Part shown: in pieces, positions 1-42,833 of the stretch
Position numbering within the stretch: the stretch's first letter is position 1
Layout of the letters: the number at the start of each line of letters is the position of its first letter
Position numbers and translations under genes: made by a program
DNA from: Naegleria gruberi
Taxonomy: Eukaryota
DNA: 64,000 nt
Assembly (NCBI GenBank): GCA_000004985.1
Contig: GG738873.1
Direction: 5' to 3' (one strand)
Notes under the pieces: generated by a model
The model's input: only the letters and a program-made list of their open reading frames with translations
Database searches by the model: none
Told to the model about the DNA's origin: nothing

Positions 1-334
1 AACCCAAACCCAAACCCAAACCCAAACCCAAACCCAAACCCAAACCCAAACCCAAACCCAAACCCAAACCCAAACCCAAACCCAAACCCAAACCCAAACC
101 CAAACCCAAACCCAAACCCAAACCCAAACCCAAACCCAAACCCAAACCCAAACCCAAACCCAAACCCAAACCCAAACCCAAACCCAAACCCAAACCCAAA
201 CCCAAACCCAAACCCAAACCCAAACCCAACCCAAACCCAAACCCAAACCCAAACCCAAACCCAAACCCAAACCCAAACCCAAACCCAAACCCAACCCAAA
301 CCCAAACCCAAACCCAAACCCAAACCCAAACCCA
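1..334. repeat. Telomeric repeat tract (CCCAAA)n, about 55 units with two CCCAA variant units near 228 and 290; C-rich strand reads 5'->3' into the chromosome, as expected for a left chromosome end
   Basis: Perfect 6-bp periodicity 'aaccca' from position 1 to 334, then an abrupt switch to unique AT-rich sequence. Confidence 0.9.
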
Positions 335-985
335 TAAGTTAATTTCATATAATAGATTAGACAATTAGAATATCAATGAAAACATTTCAAAATCATTTCA
401 AATCAATATATCACCTTATAAATCATGTTAATAACAATATATATCAATTTCAAATACTTTGGTATCATTTCAGGATATTTACTATTCAACTTGTCAACTG
501 ACCTATTCTAACATTGAAGATAGAAATCTATACCACTTCAATTCACTTCCAATACATCTGTACATGATAATTAAATACATTAATATCATTTTGACATTCA
601 TCCATATTATACATGGTACATGGCTGATCCACTTGATACCTACAGGGATGTGACAATGACATGTACTATACAGATCATCCTGAAATTGATACAGCACCTT
701 ACCAATGATGAATTAACACCACAGTATCAGTTTCGTGACAATTTGAAATCATTCAACTAGTCAGGAGTGTAATCATGGGAATAATGAATATCAAGATAAT
801 GAAATGATATTAATTTTGAAATCTTTCAATTATAGCATCATATATAGATCAATTAATCATGGTATTTCAATAATTGGTATTGACTTTCATATCAATTCAT
901 TCAAACCTTAATGACCTATCCTTAGTTGACCAAGTCAATTTTAAACTATCATGAATCATATAACTATTGATGCCATTGTGTTCAC

Positions 986-3123
986 NNNNNNNNNNNNNNN
1001 NNNNNNNNNNNNNNNNNNNNNNNNNNNNNNNNNNNNNNNNNNNNNNNNNNNNNNNNNNNNNNNNNNNNNNNNNNNNNNNNNNNNNNNNNNNNNNNNNNNN
1101 NNNNNNNNNNNNNNNNNNNNNNNNNNNNNNNNNNNNNNNNNNNNNNNNNNNNNNNNNNNNNNNNNNNNNNNNNNNNNNNNNNNNNNNNNNNNNNNNNNNN
1201 NNNNNNNNNNNNNNNNNNNNNNNNNNNNNNNNNNNNNNNNNNNNNNNNNNNNNNNNNNNNNNNNNNNNNNNNNNNNNNNNNNNNNNNNNNNNNNNNNNNN
1301 NNNNNNNNNNNNNNNNNNNNNNNNNNNNNNNNNNNNNNNNNNNNNNNNNNNNNNNNNNNNNNNNNNNNNNNNNNNNNNNNNNNNNNNNNNNNNNNNNNNN
1401 NNNNNNNNNNNNNNNNNNNNNNNNNNNNNNNNNNNNNNNNNNNNNNNNNNNNNNNNNNNNNNNNNNNNNNNNNNNNNNNNNNNNNNNNNNNNNNNNNNNN
1501 NNNNNNNNNNNNNNNNNNNNNNNNNNNNNNNNNNNNNNNNNNNNNNNNNNNNNNNNNNNNNNNNNNNNNNNNNNNNNNNNNNNNNNNNNNNNNNNNNNNN
1601 NNNNNNNNNNNNNNNNNNNNNNNNNNNNNNNNNNNNNNNNNNNNNNNNNNNNNNNNNNNNNNNNNNNNNNNNNNNNNNNNNNNNNNNNNNNNNNNNNNNN
1701 NNNNNNNNNNNNNNNNNNNNNNNNNNNNNNNNNNNNNNNNNNNNNNNNNNNNNNNNNNNNNNNNNNNNNNNNNNNNNNNNNNNNNNNNNNNNNNNNNNNN
1801 NNNNNNNNNNNNNNNNNNNNNNNNNNNNNNNNNNNNNNNNNNNNNNNNNNNNNNNNNNNNNNNNNNNNNNNNNNNNNNNNNNNNNNNNNNNNNNNNNNNN
1901 NNNNNNNNNNNNNNNNNNNNNNNNNNNNNNNNNNNNNNNNNNNNNNNNNNNNNNNNNNNNNNNNNNNNNNNNNNNNNNNNNNNNNNNNNNNNNNNNNNNN
2001 NNNNNNNNNNNNNNNNNNNNNNNNNNNNNNNNNNNNNNNNNNNNNNNNNNNNNNNNNNNNNNNNNNNNNNNNNNNNNNNNNNNNNNNNNNNNNNNNNNNN
2101 NNNNNNNNNNNNNNNNNNNNNNNNNNNNNNNNNNNNNNNNNNNNNNNNNNNNNNNNNNNNNNNNNNNNNNNNNNNNNNNNNNNNNNNNNNNNNNNNNNNN
2201 NNNNNNNNNNNNNNNNNNNNNNNNNNNNNNNNNNNNNNNNNNNNNNNNNNNNNNNNNNNNNNNNNNNNNNNNNNNNNNNNNNNNNNNNNNNNNNNNNNNN
2301 NNNNNNNNNNNNNNNNNNNNNNNNNNNNNNNNNNNNNNNNNNNNNNNNNNNNNNNNNNNNNNNNNNNNNNNNNNNNNNNNNNNNNNNNNNNNNNNNNNNN
2401 NNNNNNNNNNNNNNNNNNNNNNNNNNNNNNNNNNNNNNNNNNNNNNNNNNNNNNNNNNNNNNNNNNNNNNNNNNNNNNNNNNNNNNNNNNNNNNNNNNNN
2501 NNNNNNNNNNNNNNNNNNNNNNNNNNNNNNNNNNNNNNNNNNNNNNNNNNNNNNNNNNNNNNNNNNNNNNNNNNNNNNNNNNNNNNNNNNNNNNNNNNNN
2601 NNNNNNNNNNNNNNNNNNNNNNNNNNNNNNNNNNNNNNNNNNNNNNNNNNNNNNNNNNNNNNNNNNNNNNNNNNNNNNNNNNNNNNNNNNNNNNNNNNNN
2701 NNNNNNNNNNNNNNNNNNNNNNNNNNNNNNNNNNNNNNNNNNNNNNNNNNNNNNNNNNNNNNNNNNNNNNNNNNNNNNNNNNNNNNNNNNNNNNNNNNNN
2801 NNNNNNNNNNNNNNNNNNNNNNNNNNNNNNNNNNNNNNNNNNNNNNNNNNNNNNNNNNNNNNNNNNNNNNNNNNNNNNNNNNNNNNNNNNNNNNNNNNNN
2901 NNNNNNNNNNNNNNNNNNNNNNNNNNNNNNNNNNNNNNNNNNNNNNNNNNNNNNNNNNNNNNNNNNNNNNNNNNNNNNNNNNNNNNNNNNNNNNNNNNNN
3001 NNNNNNNNNNNNNNNNNNNNNNNNNNNNNNNNNNNNNNNNNNNNNNNNNNNNNNNNNNNNNNNNNNNNNNNNNNNNNNNNNNNNNNNNNNNNNNNNNNNN
3101 NNNNNNNNNNNNNNNNNNNNNNN
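986..3123. other. Assembly gap (run of N); all ORFs crossing it are artefacts
   Basis: 2138 consecutive n characters. Confidence 0.99.
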
Positions 3124-3154
3124 ATTAACATATATAAGATCCAAGATTTAAATA

Positions 3155-3502
3155 TTGGCCATTAATAAAATGGTAATGGGTTTTCGCCATACCCAAACCC
3201 AAACCCAAACCCACACACAAGGGATTTGGATCGAGGATTTTCCATCCCTTCACTACATTCTATCTAAGTCATTTTACAAAAAATCATATAGAAAGCTCAG
3301 CAAGTACATTGACACCTATGGAAGAAAGAGAAGAGGATGGAAGAGATTTGGAAAGAAGAGAATTATCAGAAAGAAGATTGATGTTTATGGAAAGAAGAGA
3401 AGATTTAATAAGAGAAGAATTGACACTTACAGAAAGAAGAATAGAAAGAATAGAAGAGGTGACAAGAAGAATAAGAAAGTTGATATTTACAAGCGTAAAT
3501 AA
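3155..3502 (+). pseudogene. 5'-truncated copy of the polycationic secreted repeat-peptide gene (paralog of 29385-29810). N-terminal and signal-peptide coding is replaced by unrelated sequence and telomere-like repeats. An alternative E/R-rich frame (3309-3506) is also open because the DNA is purine-rich
   Basis: C-terminal 75 aa nearly identical to the right-arm ORF ('YGRKRRGWKRFGKKRIIRKKIDVYGKKRRFNKRRIDTYRKKNRKNRRG.KKNKKVDIYKRK'). Homology to the right copy ends near 3283, so the signal peptide present in the right copy is absent here. Confidence 0.45.
3191..3213. repeat. Interstitial telomere-like tract (about 3.5 CCCAAA units followed by cacacaa) at the outer edge of the left inverted-repeat arm
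   Basis: 'acccaaacccaaacccaaaccca' at 3191-3213, same unit as the terminal telomere; lies about 70 bp outside the point where homology to the right arm stops. Confidence 0.75.
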
Positions 3503-5060
3503 TTGAAACAGAAATCAATTTCTTTAAAAAGTCTAAATTTTTGAATCAATTTTGCTTTTAATAATTATTTAACATTAGAATAAAGTTGTGAGTCTCCATA
3601 AAATTAAGTTTGTTATTTCATTTGTAAAACAATTAAGACGGGAAGCCTGCCAGGAATATGGCGACAATCCCGCTACAGTCTTTGACTGTATGAACAGTGA
3701 AGGCAACGAATCTATTGATTGTTGGTTCAGTAAGTTTGTTGTTCAAAATAAAGTCATTGATCACCATCTATTTATCACTTTTGAATTTGATCTATTTAGA
3801 AAGAGAAACTTGTGGTTGATCAATAAACATTCGGCAATATATAAAAAAATGAAATTTCTCTGTCCAAGTTGAGTTTCACATATTGCTTAGATTAAAAAAA
3901 GACTACAGCACCACAGGTTCCCAAGTTGTCTCCAACCTCAGTACTGATGTGGCTCGACAATGCGGCCGTAGCCATGCATCTTATCAAAATGTGAAAGACA
4001 AATCAAATTCATACAACTCTTTGCTGGAAATATGATGGTAAAATTTGGTTGTTGGGAGAATTGTTGGATATCTTGGAAAACTTTTGGAGTGAAACAATGA
4101 GATGAATAGTAATGTTAGATAACATCCAAGTGATGTATTTATTATTGTCCTGATGAAGATTTATCAAGTAAATAATGAATGAATAATGTTTGGAAGCATG
4201 TGAAAATTCAACTTTATCATCTCTGGAAAATAATCGAAAAACATTGGCAAAACATTCTTTATGATGTGGTACAATAACAAATCTTGTGCCTCTTGAAATT
4301 GAACAAATTTACCAAATGGTGTTTTTCACTTTGATGAAATTAAATTTTACTTTATCTTCTCCAACTCTACATGTGCTTGATGGAAAGTTTTGAAACTTTC
4401 TGAGGTGATGTTAATGAACATTTAGAACATTCCTATCGTGTTCTTATTGTCTTGTCTGATGTTTTTCATGATGAAAATATTAAAATTAATAAATTGATGA
4501 AATTCTATTTCAAGTAAAAGAATGGCATCCATTTTCTTGTTATATTTCTGATGATTATCATCCAATAAAGTGAGTTTTACTTCTCCAATTGAACAAGACT
4601 CGCCATCAATTTAATCATTGCCTTTTAAAATTTGAAATTCATGTTGAAATTTAATAAAATTAATTTCTATACATTCCAAATGATCGTATCATGTTGTGTT
4701 GAAAATGGTTTTGGAAGTGATGAAGAATTGTTTTTGAAAATCATCCATGATGAAACACGTTGCGAATTTGATGAAATTTTTCTTGTTTAATATTTTTTTA
4801 AAATCATCAAATTTCACTCATCACTTTTCTTTCCATATCAAAAAGTCATCAAATATTTTGATGTAAAGAATTAAAGATGAAAAAATTGAGAAAGCCAAGT
4901 AATAATCTAGATGAGCATTAATTTCATTGAATGAGCTTACTTAAGAGAGCCACAATAGGATTAAAAATTGTCATCACAACATCGGTCTCATCAACAAAAT
5001 CATCAACAAAATCATCATCGAGATGAAAGTATTCACATGGAAATGGATGTTTTTCTATTT
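3283..5060. repeat. Left arm of a diverged inverted repeat (partner 27900-29577, roughly 85-90% identity with indels). It carries the basic-peptide gene copy, a 5S pseudogene and about 1 kb of AT-rich non-coding DNA
   Basis: Reverse-complement matches read directly, for example 3981-4040 against 28900-28960, 3902-3960 against 29024-29079, and 4911-5040 against the reverse complement of 27900-28040. Confidence 0.85.
3901..3973 (-). pseudogene. 5S rRNA pseudogene with an internal deletion of about 46 nt (box A region). Helix I ends and the 3' half are retained, followed by a terminator-like A-run on the plus strand at 3894-3900
   Basis: The reverse complement reads 'ggctacggccgcatt|gtcgagccacatcagtactgaggttggagacaacttgggaacctgtggtgctgtagtc'. 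Compared with the intact copy at 28962-29080 it lacks 'atatcacgatgaatgcacctcatcccgtccgatttgagaagttaagcacc'. Confidence 0.8.
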
Positions 5061-5354: not shown

Positions 5355-6959
5355 TTAAACATTATAGGGTTTAGGAACATTTGATGCTTCGAAAAAGTAA
5401 TTGTATGTATTTGCTGCATCAACACCCAATTGATAATTGGTGTTTTTGCCTGTAGCCCAAATAGAGGAAGTACTTGATGATGGAATGAGGAAAGTTCCAG
5501 AATCTCCACAAATAATTTCTGGAAAAGTTCGATCTCCCAATACAGCAACCTTATAGAATTGAGTAAGATCTTCACCATAGTAGGATCCAATGACATATAC
5601 ATTATCCTTAAAGTCAGTGACATAGGTTGTGGTTTTACTTGGAGAGAGGCAAACATTTCTAATCATGAATGGAGTTGGAACTTTTGCTGGCATATGGTAA
5701 GGAACTATTTTAGATTCTCTTCCCAATCTAAAATCACCAGTTCCCCATGAGTAGAGTTTTCCTTCAGTTGACAATGCCATGAAATATTGAGATCCTCCAA
5801 GAATTTTAACAAATTTAACATCTGATGAAACTTGTTTCCAAGTGAATACTGGAGATCCAGTTCCTGTTGAAGCACCTGGGATTCTTGATGTTGTTGTTAA
5901 ATCTCCTAATTGACCAAGAGAGTTATCACCTGTACAGTAAATCAAGCTATTAATATTAGAAATGAAACAAATAGATTTTGGAACTGAGGTCAATGTTGCA
6001 ATAGCTACATCCACAACACCATGGTTCAACCCATCTACAATTGTAGACAATACTCTTGGTCTAGTCCAATGCTCAACTATGGCAGTATATTCAAAAGCTC
6101 CCATAAATAATAATCTACCATCAGTTGTAATCATATAGCATCCATAGAAATTATCATTACACTTAATTTTCTTAATAACTGGAGAAGGAATAACAGCACC
6201 AAAATCTGGGTTTTTCATAATATTGATTGTACCAGCCACATTTGCTCCAAGAGTGTTATCGTAATTATATCCCCAGCCCCAAACTTGTCCATCAGAAGTT
6301 AAAATTACAAAGTTATAGGTAGCCACAGCTTGTACATCCACAACTGTCTTTCCAGCAATTGGAGACATGTCAACAAATCCCACTGTTTTAATAACTCTTG
6401 CAGTCAAGTCGGCAGAATTAAAACCAGCATTTCTGTATGTAGTTTCAAATTTTCCAATAAATAATAAAGTATTGTTGGCCAATAAAGCAACAGTTCCCAT
6501 TTCAGTGGAGGCAAATCTATTCATTCTTATTCCATTATTGTATTGTGCAATAATTTGAGTATCAAGTACCTTGATAGATTCTAGAATAATCTTCTTTTTC
6601 AATTGTAAAGTGTTGGTGTAATTTACCATTTCTTGATATTGAAGACTGAAGGATGATGCAAATTGATCCACATCCTGAGCAGTCACTCCATCAATTTTTG
6701 TGATAAAGTCCTTTCCAGCAGCATCTTGTGCAAAGGAGAGTTGAGAGGCCAAATCCCTCGATGTAATAGCTTCTGCAAGATCTGAATTAATAGTGTCCAA
6801 ATAGGTTGAGATTAAATCCCTCTTTTTGAACAATTCCTCCACTTGCAATTGTTGATTCTTTGAAAAAACCAAATTGACAGGATCGGCACCTTCAACAAAT
6901 ACCAATATTGTACATATTAAGACAGCAATCAACATGCTCACCACTTGTACTCTTTTCAT
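5355..6959 (-). CDS. Secreted protein: signal peptide, about 150 aa coiled-coil-like N-terminal region, and a C-terminal RCC1-like beta-propeller. Single exon, 534 aa
   Basis: Complete ORF from ATG (6959) to TAA (5355). N-terminus 'MKRVQVVSMLIAVLICTILVFVEGA'. Repeated RCC1-type motifs 'GQVWGWGYNYDNTLG', 'IYCTGDNSLGQLG', 'GKLYSWGTGDFRLG', 'IWATGKNTNYQLG'. Confidence 0.8.
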   Translation of the reverse strand: MKRVQVVSMLIAVLICTILVFVEGADPVNLVFSKNQQLQVEELFKKRDLISTYLDTINSDLAEAITSRDLASQLSFAQDAAGKDFITKIDGVTAQDVDQFASSFSLQYQEMVNYTNTLQLKKKIILESIKVLDTQIIAQYNNGIRMNRFASTEMGTVALLANNTLLFIGKFETTYRNAGFNSADLTARVIKTVGFVDMSPIAGKTVVDVQAVATYNFVILTSDGQVWGWGYNYDNTLGANVAGTINIMKNPDFGAVIPSPVIKKIKCNDNFYGCYMITTDGRLLFMGAFEYTAIVEHWTRPRVLSTIVDGLNHGVVDVAIATLTSVPKSICFISNINSLIYCTGDNSLGQLGDLTTTSRIPGASTGTGSPVFTWKQVSSDVKFVKILGGSQYFMALSTEGKLYSWGTGDFRLGRESKIVPYHMPAKVPTPFMIRNVCLSPSKTTTYVTDFKDNVYVIGSYYGEDLTQFYKVAVLGDRTFPEIICGDSGTFLIPSSSTSSIWATGKNTNYQLGVDAANTYNYFFEASNVPKPYNV

Positions 6960-7467
6960 TGTGATGATGATATATGGTCAGTAATTTTTTTAGGGATGAT
7001 GGAATATAAAGGATTGGGGAGGAGATGAGAGGCACAAACAAACGCTCAAGATTTGGCCTCTTCTTTTGGAAAGACGCATCATATCATAGTGGTTATTAGT
7101 GCAAGTGAAATCTTCAACAAGGGCTTCCCAGATAACACACTGAATGGCTTTGTTGTGTGCTGTGCTGTGCTGCAACTATTGCACAATCTTCCACTTCAAT
7201 AGGGCAACCGTTGTTGTTTGTACTCTCGTATACAGCTGGATCACTATTAAGGAAATATTATTTACTGGAATGATTACCTTGAGCGAAACAGCATGGCTTT
7301 TTGTGTCAACACCAAATAGCCTCATTATCCTTAATATGCACGCGCGTTGGCAATCTTTCAACATGCAACAACGCATCTTGATCTTCCTCATCAGTGGTTC
7401 TTTTTTCCTTCTCCTCTCGAATGGCTTGCTTATTCATCAGCTTTATATCATTAAAAAAAACCAAAAG
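6960..7467. promoter_or_regulatory. Shared divergent intergenic/promoter region between the two RCC1-like paralogs (5355-6959 minus strand; 7468-9225 plus strand)
   Basis: The two paralogs are head-to-head with about 500 bp between their ATGs; an A-run 'ttaaaaaaaaccaaaag' sits immediately upstream of the plus-strand ATG at 7468. Confidence 0.45.
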
Positions 7468-9225
7468 ATGTTCTCCAATAGGAATGAATCACATGTCGTC
7501 TCGTACACAATAGTGGCCATGTGGATTGCAATGGTGGTGGGATGTTGTGCCTCTCTAGTGATGGCCGCCTCACCTACTGAATTAATTGTTAGTAAGCAGG
7601 CCATTCAATCACAACTTGCAGCTTTGCAAAAACAATTAACGGATGTTAGATTGGCAAAATATACCTTGTCAGGATTGAAGGAAGCAACTGGAATTATTTC
7701 ATCAAATTCCATTTCTGTCAATGGTGTATCATCTTTGGATGTGGATTCCCTTGGAGCAGAAGTTTCTGATCAATATCAAGAATTGGAAAGACATGAAAGA
7801 TCTGTGTTATTGAAAATGGCAGTTGTTCAAAGAAGTCTTGAAGTTATTACTGTCAATATATCCATGTCTGGATATAATCCAATGCTAAAGAGAATTGCTT
7901 CAAACATATATGGAACAACATACATTGCACCAAATGGAAGTTTATTTTATTATGGCGCAATCAATTCTGCTCTTCTAAATGGAAGACCTGGATACGTTTC
8001 TGGTTCATATATTCAAACTTATCCAACTGCTGTTGACATGTCTCCTTTGGGAGGTGATGTTGTAACTCAAGTTTATGGAGGAAGATCATACTTTTATGCG
8101 GTAACCTCTAAGGGAGACGTATGGCATTGGGGAGGAAATGATGGCACCATTGGTTCAATCTGTTCTTGTGGTCCACAGGCATCAGCTGGTTCTTCATATG
8201 TATTGAGAAAACTTGATTTTGGACTTATTGGTAAGGCCGTTATGTCAAAGAAAATTGTTTGTGATCAATCAATTGATAACAACTACGGTCAGTATGGAAC
8301 CTTTGATTGTTTCATGCTTTCAATGGAAGGGGAGCTTTACTTTATGGGTGTGTGGGTTTTCGACGGTAATAGTGGTTGGTCAATTAGATCAACGTACAAT
8401 TCAAACAAGGTCAGAAAGTTAAAGATTCAAATTAATGGTGTTGAAAAATTCGCATCTGACTTGGCTGTATCTCAAACAGCTGTTCCGGCTTATTCTGCTA
8501 TTGCTGGAGGAATTCTTAGAAATGGTGCTGCTATCTGTGTTATTGACAGAGACAATGCAACCAATATTTATTGCACAGGTGATAACAACGGGTAAGTACT
8601 TCTTTTTCAGTATGATTTTAATCATTTATTTAGTGGTCAATTTGGAGATGGTTCAATTGCTCCAACAAATATTCCATTGACTTTGGATATTGCGTCTACA
8701 AGTTGGGTCGTGGCCAAGACGCAAGCATCGTCTTCAGGTGAGATTTTCTCTCAAATTTATGGAGCCTTGAAAACTCTGTATGCTGTTGGTGCTACAGGTA
8801 AGGTTCACTCATGGGGATCAACTGGTACATTGTTGGCAAGAGTTGCTACCGAATCAAATGCCAAGATTGGTAGAACAACCTTCTCCAGCTATTTTTCAGT
8901 CTCAAAGATTTGCACCTCTCCTGCAACAGACATTGTCTTTTTGGTTAGTTCTGCAAATAATGAGGTATATGTTTTGGGAGCTCTGAATGGAGACAATTTT
9001 GACTATCCTTATCAACCACAAGCATTCAAGGGAAAGCAATTTGTTGATTGTGAAGTCAATGAAAATAATGTGTTTGTCCTCTTTGCTAATGGACAAGTAT
9101 ATGCAAAGGGTAGAAATGATGCTGCACACTTAATGGTTGGTTTCACAACACCTTCAGTTACTGGTAATCTAATGGGATTAGTCTACCCATTGACTGAATC
9201 ATTCATTCCTGTATACTATCAATAA
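7468..9225 (+). CDS. Paralog of the secreted RCC1-like propeller protein. Two exons, join(7468..8591, 8634..9225), with a 42-nt intron 'gtaagtacttctttttcag...atttatttag'
   Basis: ATG at 7468 with a hydrophobic N-terminus ('VVSYTIVAMWIAMVVGCCASLVMAAS'). Motifs 'GDVWHWGGNDGTIG', 'IYCTGDNNG|GQFGDGS', 'GKVHSWGSTG', 'GQVYAKGRND'. The donor gtaagt at 8592 and acceptor tag at 8631-8633 restore the frame; exon 2 runs to TAA at 9223-9225. Same architecture as 5355-6959. Confidence 0.7.
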
Positions 9226-17927: not shown

Positions 17928-20900
17928 TTATACCCAAGTATTATAGCTTACACCTCTTGTTATAAAATCACCAATATCATCTTCTTCTGCATCCATATTA
18001 AAGTCCTCTGTGGTTGTTGTAGGTGTTGAATCAATTGAAGAGTTGGTGTTAATTTTTTCGAATAAATCTTGTAAAGTGCTATCTCTACTTGTGTTATTAT
18101 CGTAAAATACATATTTTCCAACATTATTTTTCTTTTTTCTTCTAATAAAATACCATCCAACACCAGCTACAAGAGTGGCACAAAACGCTACCACCAAGAG
18201 TAAACCAATTGAGCCACCTACAATGTAAGGTAAATAATCAATTTGAGTGAGTGAGAAGTCTGATTTTGCACAAGTGACACAAACTTCCATCATACTACTC
18301 ACAGTTAATTCAGGAATTTGAGAGATGCCAGAAAGTAATTGAGCGCATGAAAAAGCTTGTCCAATTCCAAATTGATATCCAGTTGGTTTGGCAAGAATTT
18401 TGGAATTATCAGAAACAAAATTAAGACTACAATCAATCATATCAAGATTAATATTTTTCAATTCCCATTTCGTTCCCTTCTCTGTTAATTTCATTGAAAT
18501 TCTGTAAGAAACACCTGAACTGAATAAACAAGAGGCGGATGATTTCATTCCACTTGATAATTCACCTCCTGATAAAACTTGTTTTCCATTTTCAAAAGAT
18601 AATCCACCAAAGAATGTTCCATTATTCTTTTTAGAAATCCAAAATTCAATTAAATTACCATTTTCAATATTTGAGAATGGTGATAATTTAAAATCAAGTG
18701 ATACAATATTACTGATATCATGTAAATCTGATGATGCAACAACTTGTCTAATTGGTTTGTCTGTACATTTTGATTTGTTCAATTTACCAATATTCATTTT
18801 AATGATCAAAGGTGGTTGAACTGTTTCAGTTGTTTCTTGTCTTTGAATGATTGGAGGTGTTGTATCTTGATCTGGAATATCTTCTGGAGGTGAAATACTT
18901 GTATCAAATTTATCCAAAGAAGTAACTTTTACAACTTCTGGATCAACATATCTGATAAATAATTTGGTATCATAATTACTCGAAATTGAATCTTGAATCA
19001 AAGCTGCTCTTATATTCATTATGGAATCACTTGTTCCCAATAATGGAAGTTTAGCTGAACAAAATGTTGAATTGAGAACTGTGCATGCAATTTGAGTTTC
19101 TTCAGTGGAATATTGTTGACGAATGAAAAGATTGACATTATTGGTTGGTGGGAAGAATGTTGCCATTGCAAGAATCCTATCACCAAAATAAGCTTGTTTT
19201 GGTAAAACTTTCAATAAATCAAATCTATACAATGTCAATTCGGTATCGGTTGAAATTGGTATTGGATCTGATGTTTCACTAATTAATTCAATTTGAACTG
19301 AAACTTTAAATGAATCCTTCATTACCAAATCTTGGGGAAAGTTGCTTATCAAATCCTTTGCATTAACGAATGGCTTGAATGTAGTTCTTGTTCTACTTCC
19401 TGAGGTTTGAACTGGTAAACGAGCAAGAATCAAATTAAGAGGATCATATTTGAGAATTAAATAAGGTCTTGTTCCTGGTAAAACATAATTTCCTTCCAAA
19501 TAAATTGGAATTGAACCAGTCACTGGAACATATAATGGATAAATCTTTCTAATAGATAAAACTGTTGCCTCACTTTGATCATTATTAATATAAGCAATAG
19601 GTTGGAATTTTGTTAATTGAGTACTTTGATCAAAAACTGATGAATCTGGAGTTAATTGAGAAACTGCAATAATCAAAGATACATCTGTATTCACATTGGT
19701 CACTGTAATCTTTTCAGTATCTTTCGTGAGAACAACCAAATCATTCTTATTAACAACAAAGTTTGAATCTGAGGCTAATTCATTGAATTCTGGACTTGAT
19801 GAATCAATATCTGGAACAATTGTACTGATAGTTGTTGTTTGTTGATCACTCGATAATAAATATTGATCTGGATGATCATATAAAACAAGTGTAAAATATT
19901 TCTGAGTACTTTGAGGAATGACAATTTCTTTTGGGGTTTCATTTGGTGCTTCAATATTAACTGATACCAATAAACTTGAATTTGAAGTTCCTTCTTTGAA
20001 GAAGGTGAATGTTGTTGTATTGGTTGATGGATTGAAAACTTGATTTCCTTTATCAATATCTGTGAATGAAATTGGTCCCTTATCAAAAACTGATGAAATA
20101 TTTGCTTCCTTACTTGATGTATCAATTTCCAAGATTGTAACATTCGTTGAATTATCTTTCAATGTGATACCAAGTAAATCACCATTTGGATTATCAATAA
20201 TTTTGACAAGACCATATGTTGCATTATCCATTGTATTTATAATTGGAATAATCATTTGAGTTGCATTACTGAACTTGTCAATCTTCCAAATAATTAAAGA
20301 ATTTGGAATCTTACTCTTATATAATAAGGTATCAAAAGTTAAAAATTTGTCACCACTTTCAGTATTTACATCTGTTGTAATAGTGTAATATTTCAATAAA
20401 TTACTATTAGTAACATTGGATGGAATACCTTCTAATAAAGTTGTACTTTGTAATATCAAAGATTTACCACAAACAGTATCCATCAACGATTTTTGTAAAT
20501 AAATGTTAGAATCTATCACTGTGATTTGTTCTGCTGGTACAAATGAACCTTTACACAATTCAGTTGTGGTTTGATATTGACATAATTGACCAGTAAATCC
20601 ATCATGACATTTACACAAGTTACCTTCAATACATTTACCATTTCCTCCACAAACACTTGAATTAATTCCAGGTGTACCAAAACAAACTGGAATGGAGCAA
20701 TTCAATCCAATATAATTCTCCAAACATGAACAAGTATCATTTGAAATACAAATTCCATTTCCAAAACATGTTAAATTAGATGTTTGTTCAACACCAAAAC
20801 AGTACGTTTTAGGAATTGATGGAGCTGTTGGATCATTATTTCCAGAATTAGATGTTGGTGTTGTAGTATTAAGAGTTTCGTTTGGAGTAAAATGATTAGA

Positions 20901-23900
20901 ATCAATTGTTGAATTAGATGCGTTACTTGAACTGGTTGAATTGTTAGAACTCTGAGAAGTATTAGATCCATTATTTGAACTGGTTGAATTGATAGAATTA
21001 TTAAATCCATTATTTGATTCAGTAGTATTGTTGGATGAATTTGAGCTATTGTGTGATAATGTAGAATTGTCAGACATTGAAGTAGTACCATTAACTTGAC
21101 TGGAATTATTGCCTGTTGGTGACGAATCGTCAATTGTACTGTTATTAGAATTATTAGAACTATTGGTATTACTATTTGAACTATTGGATACACTTGGATA
21201 TGAGTTATTCATTGAATTAGAGATGGTTGAATTATTAGTTTGTGAAGAAGTATTATTAGAAACTAGAATTGTACTATTTGAACCATAGTTGGTTTCATTG
21301 GTGGAATTAGAAGTATCATAATTGGAAGTTGAGTTATTCAAGACATTGGAGGAAAGATTTGATGAATTCTGAGAAGTGTTGTTACTATTAGTAAATGTTC
21401 CATTACTTGTATTGATAGTAGTAGAATTAGAAGTAATAGTAGAATAGTTTCCATTAGAATTAGTAATATTACTTGTAGAACTATTTGTAGAAATGTTACT
21501 AAAATTCAAAATATTAGATGAATTATTCGATAGCGATTCAGTTGTGGAATTGGATATCACACTTGATTGATTTGAATGACTACTTCCATTATTGATATTA
21601 CTTGTTGAATTAGTTGTGTCAATAATTGAATTATTACCACTACTTGTTGAATTATTTTGATTAATAGTACCATTTATACCATGATTATCAATAGAGGTAA
21701 TGTTTGATGAGTCAGAGTTGTTCAGCAATGAACTGTTACCATGAGAATTAGTTACATTAAATGTTCCATTACTTGAATTATTGACAGTAGAATTAGAGTT
21801 ATTTCCATTCGAATTAGAATTATTGGTAATGTTGGAAGAATAAATAATGGATCCATTTTGAACACTTGTTTGATTCTTGTTGAGAGTTTCATTAAAAACA
21901 TTGGTTGTGTTTGTAGCTCCATTACTTGTTGAATTATTTTGATTAATAGTACTATTTATACCATGATTATTTGTTGAATTGGAATTATAATTCCAGGTAG
22001 TATTATCATTACTTGAATTATTGAGAGTAGAATTAGTGAAATTAGAATAACTATTCGTTGTAGAACTATTGTAAGAAGAATTAATGGTCGAGTTAGACGT
22101 TGCATTATTGTTTGTGGAATTTTGAATCATTGTGTCATTACTCATTGATGTATAGTTATTAATAGTATTGCTACTATTTACATTAATTAGAGAGTTTGTA
22201 GAATTAATTGTTCCGTTTTGAATTGTTGTGGAGTTATGTCCTTCACTTTCTTGATTAGTATTGTTGGTATTAGTACTATTGGAAGAATAAATAATAGACC
22301 CATTTTGAACACTTGTTTGATTCTGGATGATAGTTTCATTAACAACATTGGTTGTGTTTGTAGAATTAACCGTTGCAGAATCAAGTGATGTATTGGACGA
22401 ACCACTTTGATTCTTAATAGTTTCGTTGTAATTACTCGTCTGATTAAGCGTTGAATTTGTTGAACTTTCGCTTGTGTTATTAAGACTTTCTGAACCAGTT
22501 AAATTTGATACCACCTGAGAAGTGTTTAAACCATCAGTTGATGTTTCATTAATACCAATAGTATAGTTTGAATCTTGAGTGCTATTTTTAAAATTGGTAG
22601 AAGAGGTAACATTCATAACTAGAGTTGAATTGAGTCCACTATTTGATGTATCATTTCTATTGTTTGAAATGGAAGTTTGATTACTTGAAACAGTATTATT
22701 ATTTTCAAGAGTTTGATTATTTGTCATGGCAGTGTTATTTGAAACAGTATTATTAGAACCTAATGTATCTACTATTCCTGTACTATTTGTTTCATTTTTT
22801 CCAAAGATTGTTTGGTTATTTGAAATGTTAGTTTGATTATTCAATGAGGTATTGTTTGATGAACTGATAGAGGTATTACCACCTAATTGATCTGTATTAT
22901 TTTGTAAAGTGCTAGAATTAAAGTTAATGGTGCTATTAGAAATGTTACTGCTATTTGATATAATTCCATTCGAAGAATTTGAATTCAAATATGAGGATGA
23001 ATTATTTTCAAGAGTTTGATTGTTTGTGATAGCAGTGTTATTTGAAACAGTAGTTCTGGATTCTCCTGTGCTATTTGTATCATTGTTTCCACTATCAGAG
23101 AAGGTTTCTGTGTTATTGTTTGAAGAAGTGTCATTTGTTGAATCGCTGCTTGTACAATTAGTAGAGCCAGTAGAGGTTCCTGAAAGTGAACTATTTGATG
23201 ATGTTGTGTTTTGAGAGCCCAATGTTGAATTGTTACTTGCTGTATTAGATACTGTCTGATTATTACTTCCTTCAGAATTTTTGTCCACATCATTGCTACC
23301 CTTACTAATGGAGGATTCATTAGTTTTAACTTGATATATAGCATCATCAAAATAGAGTGTTTTAGGGTTTGGCAATAAAACTGTGTTGATCTTTCTTTCA
23401 ACTGGTTCAATTAATTTATCAGAAGGTGTAAGTATACTTGAACCATCAGCTTGTGAAATAACTATAGCATTATCAGTTTGGTAAACTCTTGTAGAATTTT
23501 TTAAACTCATCTTTGTGTTATTATAATACATAGCTAGTTCAGTATCTGAGGAAGTCCCATTAACTACAACTGAATAGAAGAAAGATCCCTCTTCATTAAC
23601 CACTACAACACTTTCATCAAAACCATCAAAGATAAAGAAGTAAGGAATTGCATTTGGGTTATTTGCTATTTTAAATGATGAAACAGTGTTTGAACCTCCA
23701 GTTAATGATAATTTTTGAATGGTTTGAACTTGTGATTTACTCTCTTCGATAATTGGCATGTAAAATTCTAAAACACCATTCTTTCTAAGAAGAGGAGTAC
23801 CATATCTTATTTGCTCTGGTGTAAAGACACCTGGACAGTATGAATATCTAAATGGTACATTAAAGTCATTTGGGAGATAATAATAAACAATCAATTGATT

Positions 23901-26900
23901 TCCATCCAAAACTAACGCATAGAAGTCTTCTCCACTTGAAAGAATTCTCGATGTGGCGTTATTTGTTGGAATAGTGAGAGTCACATTTACAGGAACAGGG
24001 CTTGTGGGGTTTACAATAAATACATTAGGCACTGGTTCATCAATTAAGGAAGTATCAATAGTGATAATAGCCGTATCATTCATTTTCTGGGTTTTCACTA
24101 ACTTATCGAGAAAAGAATCTGTAGTGCCTGGCATTGGTCTAGAAATAGTCAATTCTGTAAGATTTTGTTTCTTGTAAGTGAAATAGTAGCCGCAAACACT
24201 AATTTTTCTTATAGTTAAAGTTAGTAAAAACTTGCTATTATACTTCTTTTCAAGATTGAGAACAAAATCTTCAAACTGACCATCGGGAGTACATATAACA
24301 CTTCCATTAGAACCAGTAGAGTTGGATGATCCATTTGAGTTGTAATATGTTGTTGTGTTGGAACTTTTTGAATTGTCTACGTAACTCGAATTGTTTGTTG
24401 AGTCAAGATGAATAGGTGTGTTGCCACATGTTGTACAATTAGTTATTGTTGTATTGTCATATGTACAATTAGTAGTTGTGTTGTCAAATGTTGTACAATT
24501 AGTAGTATTATCATTGGCAACAGGAGGAATCTTAATAACATATTTTTCACTATCATAAAAATAGTAGGAAGGAGGTGGCAAGTCTGGTGATTTCTTTTCG
24601 TTGGATGATAGATCACTTGGGGAAATAAATAATATTTGGCTAGTTTGAAATGCATAAACAGTAACGAACTCGTTATAGTAAATACCAATGGATATATCTG
24701 TTTGGAATGCGGTAAGTAAATATCTTTCTGTAGCAAATGAAAAATGTTCCCAAGGCCAAGGGATTGTTGCCAATTTACGTACTTCGAAAATCTGAGATAG
24801 AGAGTAGACATTAATGCCCTTTTCACTGTATGTAATTATTCTTTCCTCTGTACCATTAAAAATTGAGAAATATGGTATTATCTGTGGATCATTGGATATT
24901 GTAAAAAAATCCAATTTTTCATCATATTGATTCAAGGATAGAATAAGAATAGTTTGATTTGATCCTTCCTCGATAATTGGCATGTATACATTGATTGTGC
25001 CGTCACTTCGTACTATAGGTTGTCCGTATCTTATTAGGTCTGGAGTGAACAGTGTATTACTAATTGAGGAAGATTTGTATTTCTGCTTATCTGAGTTAAA
25101 TCTTTCTATTAATAGATTGTTGTCATTCAAATTCAATACAAAATACTGAAGACCGTTGCTTAGTAACCTTAATGATCTTGGAGAGTTTGTTGGACCTCCA
25201 GTGGTTAAATAGTTTTGAAGATGTAATTCTTGTAGAGACCAGATTCCTATTGGAGAAATAGATGAAATGTAAAAGACAGGTTGTGTAGATAGGTCATAAC
25301 TTGCCCATGACTGATCAACGGTAACCAATAGTGAGCCTTTGAATACCTGGTATGTAATGAGCTTATCCTTAAATGACTCATAAGAAACAGGATTGTTTTT
25401 AAATTTGGAAAGTCTTTTTTGCTCTGAGCTACTGGTTTTTTTTGAAGAACTGGTAGTAAAATTAATAACAATAGGTTCCATTGTGTAACTAAGGTCAGCC
25501 TCAAAATTTGTTTTAAGCCCAATATAACCACCCAAAAGGACTACTGTTGTATCTATTATCTGACATGAAACACCATAATATGGTGTCTTACATTTACATT
25601 TTTCCGTAATCTCATCACAATAACCATTTCCACTACAAACCAGAGAACTGTTTCCACTAATTCCCCTGCATGTTACCTCGTAGTCACACTTATCGCCTTT
25701 AAAAAACTTATAACAATTGCAGGTATCGTTTTTCGTGCACGAACCATGGCCACTACAAACTGTTGGATCAGCTGATTCTTTCCCAAAACACATTACAATG
25801 GGTTTGTTGAATATTTCTGACGGGGTGGAATATTTTGGAGAGTATTTCAAACCACCTAATGATCCAATAAATTGCCACAAAAACCCATCCTTGAAATTTC
25901 TTCCAATAGAAGCACTTTGAACTACTTTGTCAACAGTTGCGTTGGCTGAAAGAGTTATATTAGTGGATAAATAGCCTTGGTAGCTATAAACACGAGTCTC
26001 GAAAGTGTCAGTACCGTCCATATTTTGGTTTCTAGTAATCGTTACTTGATATGTACTGTTGACTTTAAGGTTTGGATCCAAAACCATACTTTTTCCTTCT
26101 GCAATAGGTGACAAATCCACAACCAAAAACTTTTCTGAGCTAATGAAAACTTTGAATCGGTTTACATAATCAAAAAGGGTCATAGCAGATTCAAGTGACA
26201 ACGGAGAAAAGTAGAAATTGAATGTAAACTCACCACTAAGTAGCAAGTAAATATTTGGATCCGTAATTGAGCAATACGAGTCTTCAGAAAGGGAAACAGA
26301 GAAGTCATTATCAAGGCCAGGAGTGAGCTTTACATTTTCACAAGGAAAAGAAGCACCAGTAAGTTTGTCAACCAGATACAACTTAACTGGCTCTCCCTTA
26401 TAAGAATCGCTTGCTGAAGAAGGTACGCTAAAATATGAGCTGTGAGCTGGAACTCCGTAATAAATGGCTTGCCCTATTCGAAATGATTCAGATTGGCAGC
26501 TTACATCGTTGAAAAAATCAATAATATTAGAACAAAAAGGACCATCATGCAAGTAACTGTACATAAGTAGAGTCTCCTTAGTATAATCTAATTTGTTGTC
26601 TAACATATCGTAACAATAACCGTCCTGTTTCATATTACAAAAATTACCCACTCTAGATCTTGTCGAGGTTGGTTTACATTCACTATCTGGTGAATCGCCA
26701 GTGTTTTCACATTGGCAAACATCTTGATCAGTACAAGTTCCTTTTCCGCTACACACTCCAGGCTCATCAGCAAAAATACCAAAACATGATTTTTGAGAGC
26801 TAGTCTGTAAAATAAGTGACAACTTTTCAATTTGAACATGTGGCTCTATGACAAACATGCTTGAGTTACTAATGAAATTTACAAACGAATCCAAAGAGGA

Positions 26901-27473: not shown

Positions 27474-28961
27474 CTTGTGGCGCGACAACGGTTTATCTAC
27501 AGTTGAAGTGTTGGTTGTTCTTTTCTGTATAGTTTGTTATGAGAATTTTTTAAAAGGTGATATTGATTTTTTGGGTTGATATTTGGGTCTCTGTTCAGAC
27601 ATGTTTGAGCGCACTAAGGTGATGGATCACCGAGATCTGGAAAGATACTAAGCGCGAGCCTTATCATGCGTGGATTTTGGTGTGAGGCTCAACAAACTCT
27701 TTCAATTGCTGCATTGTTGTGAATGGTCTAGAATGATAACGTCCACTTCAAAAAAGGTCTATTCATTACAGTGATTACCGTAAATTGAGACACAAATCCT
27801 CACGCAACAACTGTTGCACATCAGCTAATAGCAGCAATACATTTTGATTCAATGGAGAATATTTAAAATTATGATGAATTTGATTTGATCCGAGGGATCA
27901 CGTTGCAGTTTCTCAATTTTTTCATCTAATAATATTTCCATGTGAATACTTTCAATGATGATTTTGTTGATGATCTTTAATCCTATTGTTGCTCTCTTAA
28001 GTCAGCTCATTCAATGAAATTAATGCTCATCTAGATAGATTATTACAATTTTTTCATCTTTAATTCTTTACATCAAAATATTTGACGATTTTTTGATATG
28101 GAAAGAAAAGTGATGAGTGAAATTTGATGATTTTAAAAAAATATTTTAACAAGAAAAATTTCATCAAATTCGCAACATGTTTCATCATGGATGATTTTCA
28201 AAGGCAATTCTTCATCACTTCCAAAACCATTTTCAACACAACATGATACGATCATTTGGAATGTATAGAAATTAATTTTATTAAATTTCAACATGAATTT
28301 CAAATTTTAAAAGGCAATGATTAAATTGATGGCGAGTCTTGTTCAATTGGAGAGGTAAAATTCACTTTATTGAATGATAATCATCAGAAATATAACAAGT
28401 AAATGGATGCCATTCTTTTACTTGAAATAGAATTTCATCAATTTATTAATTTTAATATTTTCATCATGAAAAACATCAGACAAGACAATAAGAAGACGAT
28501 GGGCATGTTCTAAATGTTCATTAACATCACCTCAGAAAGTTTCAAAACTTTCCATCAAGCACATGTAGAGTTGGAGAAGATAAAGTAAAATTTAATTTCA
28601 TCAAAGTGAAAAACACTTTTTGGTAAACCTGTTCAATTTCAAGAGGAGGCACAAGATTTGTTATTGTACCACATCATAAAGAATGTTTTGCCAATGTTTT
28701 TCGATTATTTTCCAGAGATGATAAAGTTGAATTTTCACATGCTTCCAAACATTATTCATTCATTATTTACTTGATAAATCTTCATCAGGACAATAATAAA
28801 TACATCACTTGGATGTTATCTAACATTACTATTCATCTCATTGTTTCACTCCAAAAGTTTTCCAAGATATCCAACAATCCTCCCAACAAGAATATTTTAC
28901 CATCATATTTCCAGCAAAGAGTTGTATGAATTTGATTTGTCTTTCACATTTTGATAAGAAT

Positions 28962-29080
28962 GGCTACGGCCATATCACGATGAATGCACCTCATCCCGTC
29001 CGATTTGAGAAGTTAAGCACCGTCGAGCCACATCAGTACTGAGGTTGGAGACAACTTGGGAACCTGTGGTGCTGTAGTCT
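28962..29080 (+). rRNA. 5S ribosomal RNA gene (about 119 nt), apparently intact
   Basis: 'GGCTACGGCCATATCACGATGAATGCACCTCATCCCGTCCGATTTGAGAAGTTAAGCACCGTCGAGCCACATCAGTACTGAGGTTGGAGACAACTTGGGAACCTGTGGTGCTGTAGTC'. Helix I pairs 5' GGCUACGGC with 3' GCUGUAGUC. The conserved 3' half 'GGTTGGAGACAAC..GGGAAC...GGTGCTGTA' closely resembles Dictyostelium 5S. Confidence 0.9.
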
Positions 29081-29085
29081 TTTTT
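29080..29085 (+). terminator. Pol III terminator T-run immediately 3' of the 5S gene
   Basis: 'tttttt' directly after '...gctgtagtc'. Confidence 0.7.
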
Positions 29086-29384
29086 GAAATCTTTCTCTTC
29101 TAAATAGATCAAATTCAAAGGAGATAAACAGATGGTCAGGTTGCAATCTTTTCTAAACAATAACTTACTGAACCAACAATCAATAGATTAGTTGCCTTCA
29201 CTGTTCATACAGTCGCCATATTCCTGGCAGGCTTCCCGTCCAATTAAAAGCTTAGTTTAAGCAGAAATAGAGAGAAACTCTCTAACCCTTAAAACCACAA
29301 AAAAGCAACTAAATAATGTTAAATTTAAAAGCAAAATTGATTTAAAAATTTATTCTTTTTAAGGAAATTTGATTTGTTTTTCAA

Positions 29385-29810
29385 TTATTTACGCTTGTAG
29401 ATATCAACTTTCTTATTCTTTCCACCTCGTCTATTCTTTCTATTTTTCTTTCTATAAGTATCAATTCTTCTCTTATTAAATCTTCTCTTCTTTCCATAAA
29501 CATCAATCTTCTTTCTAATAATTCTCTTCTTTCCAAATCTCTTCCATCCTCTTCTCTTTCTTCCATAGGTGTACTTGTTGAGCTTTCTATTGTTCTTTCT
29601 CTTCTTTAATCTGTATTTCTTGAGATTTCTCTTCTTGTTATTATTCTTTCTAATGTACAAGGAAAGTGTTGAGGCAGCAGTTGTTGCTTCTTCTGCAGAA
29701 ACTCCTGAAGTGAAGGAAAGTGCAAGAATGGCCAAAGTCAAGGCAATCAACAAGATTGAAATGAATCTTTTCATTGTTTTTTTGAGTGTTTTGTTCAAGA
29801 AGTGAAACAT
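29385..29810 (-). CDS. Secreted, extremely basic (Lys/Arg-rich) tandem-repeat peptide of about 130-141 aa. It has a signal peptide followed by four or more repeats of about 11 residues of the form x-D-x-Y-(G/R)-(R/K)-K-(R/N)-R. The real start is probably the second ATG at 29774
   Basis: 'MKRFISILLIALTLAILALSFTSGVSAEEATTAAS...YRLKKRKNNRKLNKYTYGRKRRGWKRFGKKRIIRKKIDVYGKKRRFNKRRIDTYRKKNRKNRRGGKNKKVDIYKRK'. The reading frame and most of the sequence are conserved in the diverged left-arm copy. An overlapping E/R-rich frame (29381-29566) lacks a signal peptide. Confidence 0.5.
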   Translation of the reverse strand: MFHFLNKTLKKTMKRFISILLIALTLAILALSFTSGVSAEEATTAASTLSLYIRKNNNKKRNLKKYRLKKRKNNRKLNKYTYGRKRRGWKRFGKKRIIRKKIDVYGKKRRFNKRRIDTYRKKNRKNRRGGKNKKVDIYKRK

Positions 29811-30464: not shown

Positions 30465-30545
30465 TGCAGAAGGTGGGATTTGAACCCACGAAGCTTGCGC
30501 AGTAGAACTTGAGTCTACCCCCTTTGACCACTCGGGAACCCCTGC
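30465..30545 (-). tRNA. tRNA-Leu (anticodon CAA) with a long variable arm
   Basis: Minus-strand sequence 'GCAGGGGTTCCCGAGTGGTCAAAGGGGGTAGACTCAAGTTCTACTGCGCAAGCTTCGTGGGTTCAAATCCCACCTTCTGCA'. Acceptor stem GCAGGGG/CTTCTGC, anticodon stem GTAGA/TCTAC with loop CT-CAA-GT, T-arm GTGGG-TTCAAAT-CCCAC, and a variable arm of about 12 nt. Confidence 0.85.
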
Positions 30546-41294: not shown

Positions 41295-42833
41295 ATGAAG
41301 CCTCTCTCGGATCAAGACTTGCTTCTCTACTTTACTAAATTCAAAAAAGAAATTAAACCAAGGGATCATACCTATCTATTCACAAGTTATGCTAATTGCT
41401 TCTCAGGGAAGGAGGCTGTTAAAACATTGACTTCTCTCTTTAATAATCTTTCAATGGAGGATGCTATTCAATTAGGAAATCAAATGATTGAGAGGAAATT
41501 GTTTATTCACGTAACACACGAATCTTCACAATTACTCAACAAACGATACGAGTTTTACAGATTTACCAACTTTAGGAGATGTTCAAAGAGATTGAGTATT
41601 ATGAACGTTACACAATTCACATCGAGTCTTGATGCTTCCTATCAGAAAGTTATTCAAGATGAATATAATAACAAGGGACGAGTTGGAGACATTAGAATAT
41701 TATTGGATGATGTTTACTTGTCGAGTCAAAACAATAATCAAACTGCCACCGGTGGTGCCATCAGTACTGCGAATGCAGTCACTTCGAATAGTGCAGTCCT
41801 ATCTCGTTCAAGCTCATTCTTTTCCTCAGCTTGCGTTCAATCCTTTTTAAATGATGATATTGCATTGGTCAACAACCAAACCAATGAGACGGATACTTCA
41901 TCACCAGACCAACAGCAAAATGCCAGTTCAATATCCTTATTTGGAAAGAAAATATCTGTACCTCTAAAGATTAGAAAGAATTCACAACCTTCCCACCAAA
42001 ATTCTCCACCAATGAGTGGTTCCTTTGATAATCCAAACCTTTTGAAAAAATCTCCAAGAGGAAACAATAGCCCATTCACTGGATTCAGTTCTGAGCTGTC
42101 TCCACACCACAAATCATCTAGTGCTGAGGATTTATACGGAAGAAAAGTGAGACTAAATGAGTATGTTGATGTTAACTCCCTTGGAGTTGGGTCACCACTC
42201 AAATCTATAGCAACATCTTCTGCTGATGATTCGAGTCCTCTTCAAGACACTCCCTCTCCTCAAAATGAGAGTAGCGTTGTTTCCTCCTCTCCTAGACGTC
42301 ATGGTATGATAGCCCGAACAACTTCACAAGATTTTGAATTGAAACGTAACTTGGAAGATATGGATTTGGATTTTGACAAGTTTGCAAATATTGATGAGGT
42401 TTTAAAGCATCCAAAAGCTTGTGCCATTCTCACCAAATTTGCATTTGATGAATATGCAGAGGAATCAATTTACTTTTGGAAAGATTTGAAAGCCTACAAG
42501 AAGGAATCGAGAATTGATTGTAAATTAGATATGGCTATCAAAATTTTCGATACCTATGTGAATCCAGATGGTAGCTTGGCTCTTAATATTACAAAAAAAC
42601 AAATAGTTGAGTGTAGGAGAAAGTATCTCAATGCTGATGATGATTGTTTCGATGATATTCAAAAGGAAGTCAAGATTATTTTGAATGATCTCCTTGACCG
42701 TCTTCGTTTGGGTATTCAACAACAAAAAACCAATCAAATTAACATGCTAAACAGCAAGAGCTCTCTTATTCCCTCATCAACTTCCAATTTGAAAATGTCT
42801 AGATCTGATGAAAGTATAGCCTTTGTCCAATAA
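41295..42833 (+). CDS. DEP-domain plus RGS-domain protein (regulator of G-protein signalling), 512 aa, single exon
   Basis: N-terminal DEP-like 'FSGKEAVKTLTSLF...EDAIQLGNQMIERKLFIHVTHESSQLLNKRYEFYRF'. C-terminal RGS 'FANIDEVLKHPKACAILTKFAFDEYAEESIYFWKDLKAYKK...DMAIKIFDTYVNPDGSLALNI'. Confidence 0.75.
   Translation: MKPLSDQDLLLYFTKFKKEIKPRDHTYLFTSYANCFSGKEAVKTLTSLFNNLSMEDAIQLGNQMIERKLFIHVTHESSQLLNKRYEFYRFTNFRRCSKRLSIMNVTQFTSSLDASYQKVIQDEYNNKGRVGDIRILLDDVYLSSQNNNQTATGGAISTANAVTSNSAVLSRSSSFFSSACVQSFLNDDIALVNNQTNETDTSSPDQQQNASSISLFGKKISVPLKIRKNSQPSHQNSPPMSGSFDNPNLLKKSPRGNNSPFTGFSSELSPHHKSSSAEDLYGRKVRLNEYVDVNSLGVGSPLKSIATSSADDSSPLQDTPSPQNESSVVSSSPRRHGMIARTTSQDFELKRNLEDMDLDFDKFANIDEVLKHPKACAILTKFAFDEYAEESIYFWKDLKAYKKESRIDCKLDMAIKIFDTYVNPDGSLALNITKKQIVECRRKYLNADDDCFDDIQKEVKIILNDLLDRLRLGIQQQKTNQINMLNSKSSLIPSSTSNLKMSRSDESIAFVQ

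Follow-up and report, generated by a model that had tools for sequence, protein, structure and literature searches.

Layout of the chromosome end

The window analysed here spans 64,000 nucleotides at the left end of a chromosome-end scaffold of Naegleria gruberi, with the C-rich strand read inward. This assignment follows from the CCCAAA array with which the window begins, together with a published survey of genome assemblies (PMC3622300) in which TTTGGG is given as the candidate repeat for N. gruberi telomeres. The ORF at 41295-42833 encodes a product 100% identical to an NCBI predicted protein of N. gruberi. The genes of the window use the standard genetic code, at a GC content of approximately 30-37%. 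An artefact of alternative macronuclear fragmentation, of the kind produced in ciliates, was considered and rejected, since the window is Naegleria DNA with the standard code. The coordinates of the features discussed below are collected in Table 1.

Table 1. Features of the chromosome end and of the inverted repeat. Positions are those of the window; a slash marks a junction.
Feature	Position	Strand	Description
Terminal telomere array	1..334	+	~55 CCCAAA units, C-rich strand inward
Subterminal unique sequence	335..985		27.6% GC; ORFs all <=64 aa
Scaffold gap	986..3123		2138 N; covers most of what separates the internal tract from the terminal array
Distal flank of tract	3124..3190	+	67 nt from contig edge; holds ATG 3170 of P0009
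Chimeric ORF P0009	3170..3502	+	110 aa; NCBI-annotated predicted protein; without signal peptide
Interstitial telomeric tract	3191..3213	+	A(CCCAAA)3CCCA, 23 nt, 3.8 perfect units
CACACA just inside tract	3214..3219	+	G strand: ...TTGTGTGTGGG/TTTGGG; read directly from sequence
Spacer between tract and start of arm homology	3214..3287	+	74 nt, unrelated to right arm
Left arm of inverted repeat (outer, decayed)	3288..5044	+	Arm comparison
5S rRNA copy, left arm (presumed pseudogene)	3900..3973	-	45-nt internal deletion (~46 model positions); 42 bits
Right arm of inverted repeat (inner, intact)	27934..29590	-	Arm comparison
Full-length 5S rRNA gene, right arm	28962..29080	+	101.9 bits
Intact basic-peptide gene, right copy	29385..29774	-	129 aa; signal peptide, then K/R-rich [IV]D[TVI]Y repeats

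The terminal array is perfect except for two 5-nt CCCAA variant units (approximately 225-229 and 290-294), which may be either true variants or Sanger compression errors. It sits on a contig of just 985 bp, and when a second copy of the subterminal sequence at 335-985 was sought across the rest of the window, none was significant. The following contig begins at 3124, where the 2138-N gap ends; further inward, at 49536-51157, the scaffold is interrupted again, by 1622 N. The link between this contig and the telomere-bearing one rests on scaffolding, and all distances between the two are therefore given as scaffolded.

Sixty-seven nucleotides into the second contig lies a short interstitial telomeric tract, which is followed directly by CACACAAGGG. 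The tract has the same polarity as the terminal array: in both, CCCAAA is found on the plus strand and the G strand runs 5' to 3' towards the chromosome end. As scaffolded, it is located approximately 2.86 kb inside the terminal array, 2138 of those bases being N. When the 64-kb window was searched for the 18-mer (CCCAAA)3 with at most one mismatch, the only matches were the terminal array and positions 3192-3215, where shuffled sequences are expected to give 0.00. A search with a 12-mer, likewise allowing at most one mismatch and covering both strands of the 64 kb, returned the tract as the sole non-terminal match.

Other perfect hexamer microsatellites of three units number only two in approximately 60 kb, TCCATT at 12611 and CCACAA at 47390. 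As neither has the telomere unit, a chance origin of the tract is very unlikely. Furthermore, the coincidence of the telomere unit, the telomere polarity and a position approximately 3 kb from the end makes an origin by slippage very improbable. To judge from its sequence, the tract as present in the assembly is almost certainly telomere-derived. It is probably a true interstitial telomeric sequence of the short subtelomeric type, marking the site of a former end or of a block junction, its reality being subject to confirmation at the level of the reads.

The first recognisable protein-coding genes inward of the left arm of the inverted repeat are a divergent pair with RCC1-like repeats (5355-6959, minus strand, and 7144-8595, plus strand). 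Much of the spacer between the two arms is filled by a single open frame of 3186 aa (17928-27488, minus strand), which contains many internal degenerate repeats with periods of 15-42 nt, as well as direct repeats at 21.8-23.1 kb. A tRNA-Leu(CAA) gene of 81 nt (30465-30545, minus strand) lies approximately 0.9 kb beyond the right arm. Positions 52000-64000 are occupied, on the minus strand, by a tandem array of related cysteine-rich genes with a spacing of approximately 1.26-1.7 kb. This array, in which a repeat with a period of 15 nt (5 residues) occupies 59597-60069, looks like a subtelomere-proximal family of surface-protein-like genes.

The inverted repeat and the truncated basic-peptide gene

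Inward of the tract, the contig carries the outer arm of an inverted repeat. The two arms lie approximately 22.9 kb apart, and the outer edge of their homology is sharp, at 3288 in the left arm and 29590 in the right. The original prediction had placed the end of arm homology near 3283 and, about 70 bp outside it, a tract at 3191-3213 with the CCCAAA unit of the array at 1-334. All of this was borne out: the edge is indeed sharp and lies within a few nucleotides of the position proposed, the tract consists of the same unit in the same polarity, and its inner end, at 3213, is separated from the edge by 74 nt of unrelated sequence (3214-3287).

Each arm carries both a 5S rRNA gene and a copy of a basic-peptide gene, and the two genes are thus physically linked in a unit of 1.7 kb. 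Of the two arms, it is the left one, on the side of the telomere, that has decayed: its 5S gene has lost 45 nt internally and its basic-peptide gene lacks the signal-peptide half. The left-arm 5S copy is presumably a pseudogene; its counterpart in the right arm is full-length.

Sequence conservation is unevenly distributed along the arms. The core (3979-4887) is 97-99% identical between them, and the region at 3503-3978 is indel-rich. In the shared coding part of the basic-peptide gene, the synonymous difference is 0.177 and the nonsynonymous difference 0.015 (pN/pS 0.09; Fisher p = 5e-4), and the synonymous sites of the gene have diverged significantly more than the non-coding core (p = 4e-4). 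The core was probably homogenised recently. The arms are mosaic, which suggests recent gene conversion of the core and not a single recent duplication. With parts of such different age in the arms, the tract may be far younger than the block edge at 3288.

Two further features of the arms were observed. A block of approximately 80 nt (3637-3735 in the left arm and 29164-29240 in the right) is near-identical between the arms apart from a 21-nt indel, and its surroundings are diverged. In the left arm this block ends in TTCA/GTAAGT, which resembles a 5' splice site. Rfam gives no match to the block, which may represent a small exon or else an RNA that has not been recognised. In addition, a tandem repeat, (TCATCAACAAAA)2.5, is present at 4988-5017 in the left arm only, near the inner edge of the inverted repeat.

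The product of the basic-peptide gene belongs to a small family of secreted proteins that are extremely basic and apparently confined to Naegleria; they combine a signal peptide with K/R-rich spacers and repeats of the motif [IV]D[TVI]Y. Among 5.8 billion proteins only five relatives were found, P0006-P0010, and the family contains no Pfam domain. Three of the five (P0006-P0008) are full-length paralogues encoded on other N. gruberi scaffolds. When the family alignment was scanned against metagenomes, no relative was confirmed. The intact right copy is absent from the database matches, and may therefore be unannotated. As a guess, the products of the family may be processed cationic peptides.

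The left copy of the gene retains only the C-terminal 70 or so codons, its 5' end having been cut on the side that faces the telomere. It is not merely headless, since the NCBI-annotated frame P0009 supplies a different N-terminus. This frame is open from 3152, starts with the ATG at 3170, crosses the tract as TQTQTQTH, and continues in-frame into the gene remnant. The result is an orphan N-terminus, MVMGFRHTQTQTQTHTQGIWIEDF (MVMGFRH-TQTQTQTH-…), which is partly encoded by the tract and is in-frame with the C-terminal half of the basic peptide.

The origin of this N-terminus was examined by several searches. An exhaustive HMMER search among 1.84 billion representatives returned only P0009 itself and six multi-stretch matches; these, of which the one inspected is a TPR-repeat protein, were taken as chance, as the N-terminus contains no Pfam TPR. 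Comparison with Pfam likewise gave no other domain. A word-index search for relatives of the N-terminus yielded no match, although this result is weak, since the search also missed P0009. Finally, when the non-tract part of the 46-codon extension was shuffled, the extension was stop-free in 6.4% of cases. The lack of relatives, the lack of a Pfam domain and this frequency of stop-free shuffles together make the extension look like fortuitously open non-coding DNA, though they do not prove it.

In order to assign the coding changes to one copy or the other, they were polarised by means of the paralogues P0006-P0008. The left copy has acquired two nonsynonymous changes, and the right copy two in-frame deletions. 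Had the left copy been neutral or dead since the divergence, 7-15 nonsynonymous changes would be expected (Poisson P(<=2) of 6e-5 to 0.024). The low level of change can be read in either of two ways: the left copy remained intact and constrained for most of the time since the divergence and was then recently truncated, or selection acts on the chimeric ORF. Constraint on the left copy for most of its history would fit a relatively recent truncation and a tract that has not decayed.

The low pN/pS could also reflect a function of the chimeric ORF. In that case P0009 would be a chimeric gene that is alive, in which the telomere-derived tract has been co-opted as coding sequence and the N-terminus has been drawn from subtelomeric junk and telomere repeats. 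We consider this to be decidedly improbable. If it were true, a basic peptide that used to be secreted would, as P0009, end up in the cytosol or the nucleus, and the pN/pS of 0.09 measured for the shared half would partly reflect selection on the truncated copy.

The inner junction and the origin of the tract

Read on the G strand towards the chromosome end, the inner junction of the tract and its surroundings have the form …CCCTTGTGTGTGGG/TTTGGGTTTGGGTTTGGGT/ATGGCGAAAACCC…, such that the repeats start after a TG-rich stretch ending in GGG. The repeats, TTTGGGTTTGGGTTTGGGT, lie directly on a non-telomeric, G/T-rich 3' end, CCCTTGTGTGTGGG, an arrangement that is consistent with the healing of a broken end but is not proof of it. 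In the chromosome healing of other organisms, TG-rich 3' ends of this type are sites at which telomerase seeds new repeats, and telomerase may have been primed at the TTGTGTGTGGG/TTTGGG junction. The CACACA at 3214-3219 could be either the TG-rich seed for telomerase or, equally, a degenerate proximal repeat (CCCACA).

The original prediction interpreted this locus as de novo telomere addition at a break, and held that the left gene had lost its signal-peptide half exactly at the tract. Parts of both claims stand. The tract is almost certainly telomere-derived, its polarity is that of the present telomere, its junction is TG-rich, and the gene has indeed been reduced to its C-terminal 70 or so codons. 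What does not stand is addition at the gene breakpoint, nor does the word "exactly": homology to the gene is lost at 3288, the repeats end at 3213, and between them lie 74 nt of unrelated sequence. With the tract and the gene breakpoint thus apart, the observed arrangement is not that of simple healing at the break, and because the 74-nt segment separates the telomere repeats from the breakpoint, at least two junctions are needed. The truncation of the gene on its telomere side and the position of the tract near the block edge nevertheless favour the reading of the tract as a former end, which is thereby partly supported.

Neither flank of the tract could be traced to another sequence. Copies of 3124-3190 and 3214-3287 were sought elsewhere in the window, and none was significant. 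Local alignments of 3124-3190, of 3214-3290 and of the whole of 3124-3290 with the 526 nt upstream of the right copy scored no higher than the mean of 1000 shuffles, and a boundary-anchored, ungapped alignment of the 74 nt beyond the arm edge gave 29.7% identity, compared with a background of 27.4%. Apparent leftover homology outside 3288, noted by eye and with MAFFT (AAAATGGTAAT and TTCACT), was accordingly attributed to chance, the alignments being no better than shuffles or background. A DNA pattern of the form flank-N{0,30}-flank found no match in metagenome contigs.

We favour a history in which an earlier chromosome end or block junction came to lie internally and survives as the tract, through the healing of an end and the later joining of distal DNA, and we put the chance that this is correct at about even. 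What the sequence shows is the tract with its polarity, the boundaries, and a left arm that has decayed; a plausible order of events leading to them, the involvement of telomerase included, would be as follows. A copy of the 1.7-kb unit with its basic-peptide and 5S genes, in which the 5' end of the basic-peptide gene pointed towards the telomere, would have lost its distal part, cutting the gene at 3288. The end would have been rebuilt via a 74-nt filler or foreign segment, whereupon telomerase would have seeded TTTGGG repeats onto its TG-rich 3' end (…TTGTGTGTGGG). Approximately 2.9 kb of distal DNA with the present telomere would have been joined later, by end joining, telomere capture or subtelomeric exchange, and would have internalised the tract. 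As a by-product, an open frame would have been created that runs from a new ATG across the tract and into the gene remnant. Three other histories would leave the same picture: the capture of a distal block that already carried the tract, the insertion of telomerase filler at an internal break, or a telomere-targeted element.

The tract might also be an artefact of assembly or cloning, and the original prediction itself offered a mis-join across the N gap as its alternative. The first 90 or so nucleotides of the contig starting at 3124 could be a chimeric or poor read, or the 985-bp telomere contig could have been mis-scaffolded. The true end of the chromosome, or of one of its haplotypes, might then be a telomere at approximately 3214. 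The tract does lie a mere 67 nt from a contig edge beside the 2138-N gap, and the telomere-bearing terminal contig is very small. Yet both flanks of the tract are ordinary AT-rich, non-telomeric, non-vector sequence within one contig. A true long telomere at 3214 should, moreover, give a long CCCAAA consensus, whereas 23 nt are seen and are followed by unique sequence, and a random chimeric junction is not expected to hold exactly 3.8 units unless a telomere was truly there. We consider an artefact unlikely. Contamination of the contig edge by vector was rejected on the basis of a comparison of 3124-3300 with 72,556 plasmid records, which gave only two weak matches, both on the telomere repeat.

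If the tract is genuine, telomerase may have added it as filler during the repair of a double-strand break inside a chromosome that was never truncated, in which case 3124-3190 and 3214-3287 would once have been contiguous. Its short and exact 3.8 units are like the short interstitial telomeric sequences of mammals, for which this mechanism is cited in a review (PMC6410037, citing Nergadze et al. 2007). Both flanks are also equally unrelated to the right arm, as if they were parts of one older sequence. However, a tract in the last 3 kb or so of the chromosome, with telomere-ward polarity and near a block edge, fits the subtelomeric class better; we regard an origin as filler as rather unlikely.

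A different route to a short internal tract is offered by telomere-targeted mobile elements, among which are MoTeR of Magnaporthe and the terminal Penelope-like elements. In a Magnaporthe study, transposon insertions into telomeres reportedly create short internal telomere tracts. An element spanning 335-3190 (approximately 2.86 kb) that left a short tract on its inner side would give rise to the layout seen here, namely telomere, approximately 2.9 kb of DNA, a short tract of the same polarity, and chromosome. But the visible 651 and 67 nt show no coding potential, no reverse-transcriptase-like ORF (all ORFs are at most 64 aa), no poly(A) and no terminal repeat, the other 2138 nt of the segment being hidden in the gap, and an autonomous element would not fit into so short a segment. 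We judge the presence of such an element to be highly improbable.

It is barely credible, finally, that the tract has nothing to do with telomeres, and is instead an A/C-rich hexanucleotide microsatellite that arose by chance through slippage within coding or non-coding DNA of low complexity (TQTQTQ) or a "telobox"-like regulatory motif. The window does contain two other perfect hexamer repeats of three units, of which CCACAA at 47390 is A/C-rich, and the tract falls inside an annotated ORF. Yet a hexamer microsatellite would have the telomere unit at a rate of only approximately 12/4096 per locus, and the tract also has the polarity of the telomere and lies approximately 3 kb from the end. 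As to a regulatory role, one ACCCAAAC is found approximately 75 nt upstream of the ATG of the right copy. This 8-mer occurs at 5 non-telomeric sites in the window, however, where approximately 2 are expected, which is not a meaningful enrichment, and neither local nor boundary-anchored alignment detected homology between the surroundings of the tract and the promoter of the right copy. The regulatory reading was therefore rejected.

Relation to internal telomeric tracts of other organisms

Internal telomeric tracts have been reviewed together for yeast and humans (PMC6410037). At the boundaries of human subtelomeric duplicons, internal (TTAGGG)n-like tracts are oriented towards the telomere (Ambrosini et al. 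2007, PMC2323237). These duplicon-boundary tracts and the TG1-3 tracts found between X and Y' in yeast form the class to which the Naegleria tract would also belong, and they are read as relics of translocated or rebuilt chromosome tips. As in the human case, a telomere repeat is found in Naegleria a few kilobases inside the terminal array as scaffolded, oriented telomere-ward and near the edge of a duplicated block. There are, however, several differences. The human tracts are degenerate islands located on the block edge, while the Naegleria tract is single, very short (23 nt) and perfect, and lies 74 nt off the edge. In addition, the duplicated block in Naegleria is an intrachromosomal inverted copy situated 23 kb away, unlike in humans, and the host is a heterolobosean amoeba, neither human nor yeast.

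The tract also shares features with two other classes of telomere repeat. As in de novo telomere addition, the repeats begin abruptly after TG-rich, non-telomeric DNA (…TTGTGTGTGGG/TTTGGG…), and a nearby gene is cut on its telomere side. In contrast to de novo addition, the repeats in Naegleria are internal, are limited to 3.8 units and do not start at the gene breakpoint. The loss of ancestral distal DNA and the activity of telomerase belong to de novo addition, while the Naegleria case is known from sequence alone. Few exact units and unique flanks are likewise characteristic of the short interstitial telomeric sequences left at mammalian double-strand breaks, as cited in the above review (Nergadze et al. 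2007, in PMC6410037). Those sequences are found at any chromosomal location, and at orthologous sites that are empty their two flanks adjoin each other, whereas the Naegleria tract is subtelomeric and lies by the edge of a rearrangement.

In the literature searched, neither the subtelomeres of Naegleria nor any internal tract of telomere repeats in the genus were described, and telomeres are unmentioned in the Naegleria pangenome paper. The telomere repeat of N. gruberi itself has so far only been inferred from assemblies (PMC3622300). The tract described here is an expected type of subtelomeric scar, known from yeast and humans, and does not represent a new mechanism; it is new for this organism. 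If confirmed at the level of the reads, it would provide a first sequence-level glimpse of chromosome-end rebuilding in Naegleria, and CCCAAA tracts at block edges would then offer a marker for a genome-wide census, given an assembly free of gaps. Such confirmation would also suggest that the breakage, the seeding of telomere repeats and the capture of distal DNA known from yeast and humans are at work in a heterolobosean too.
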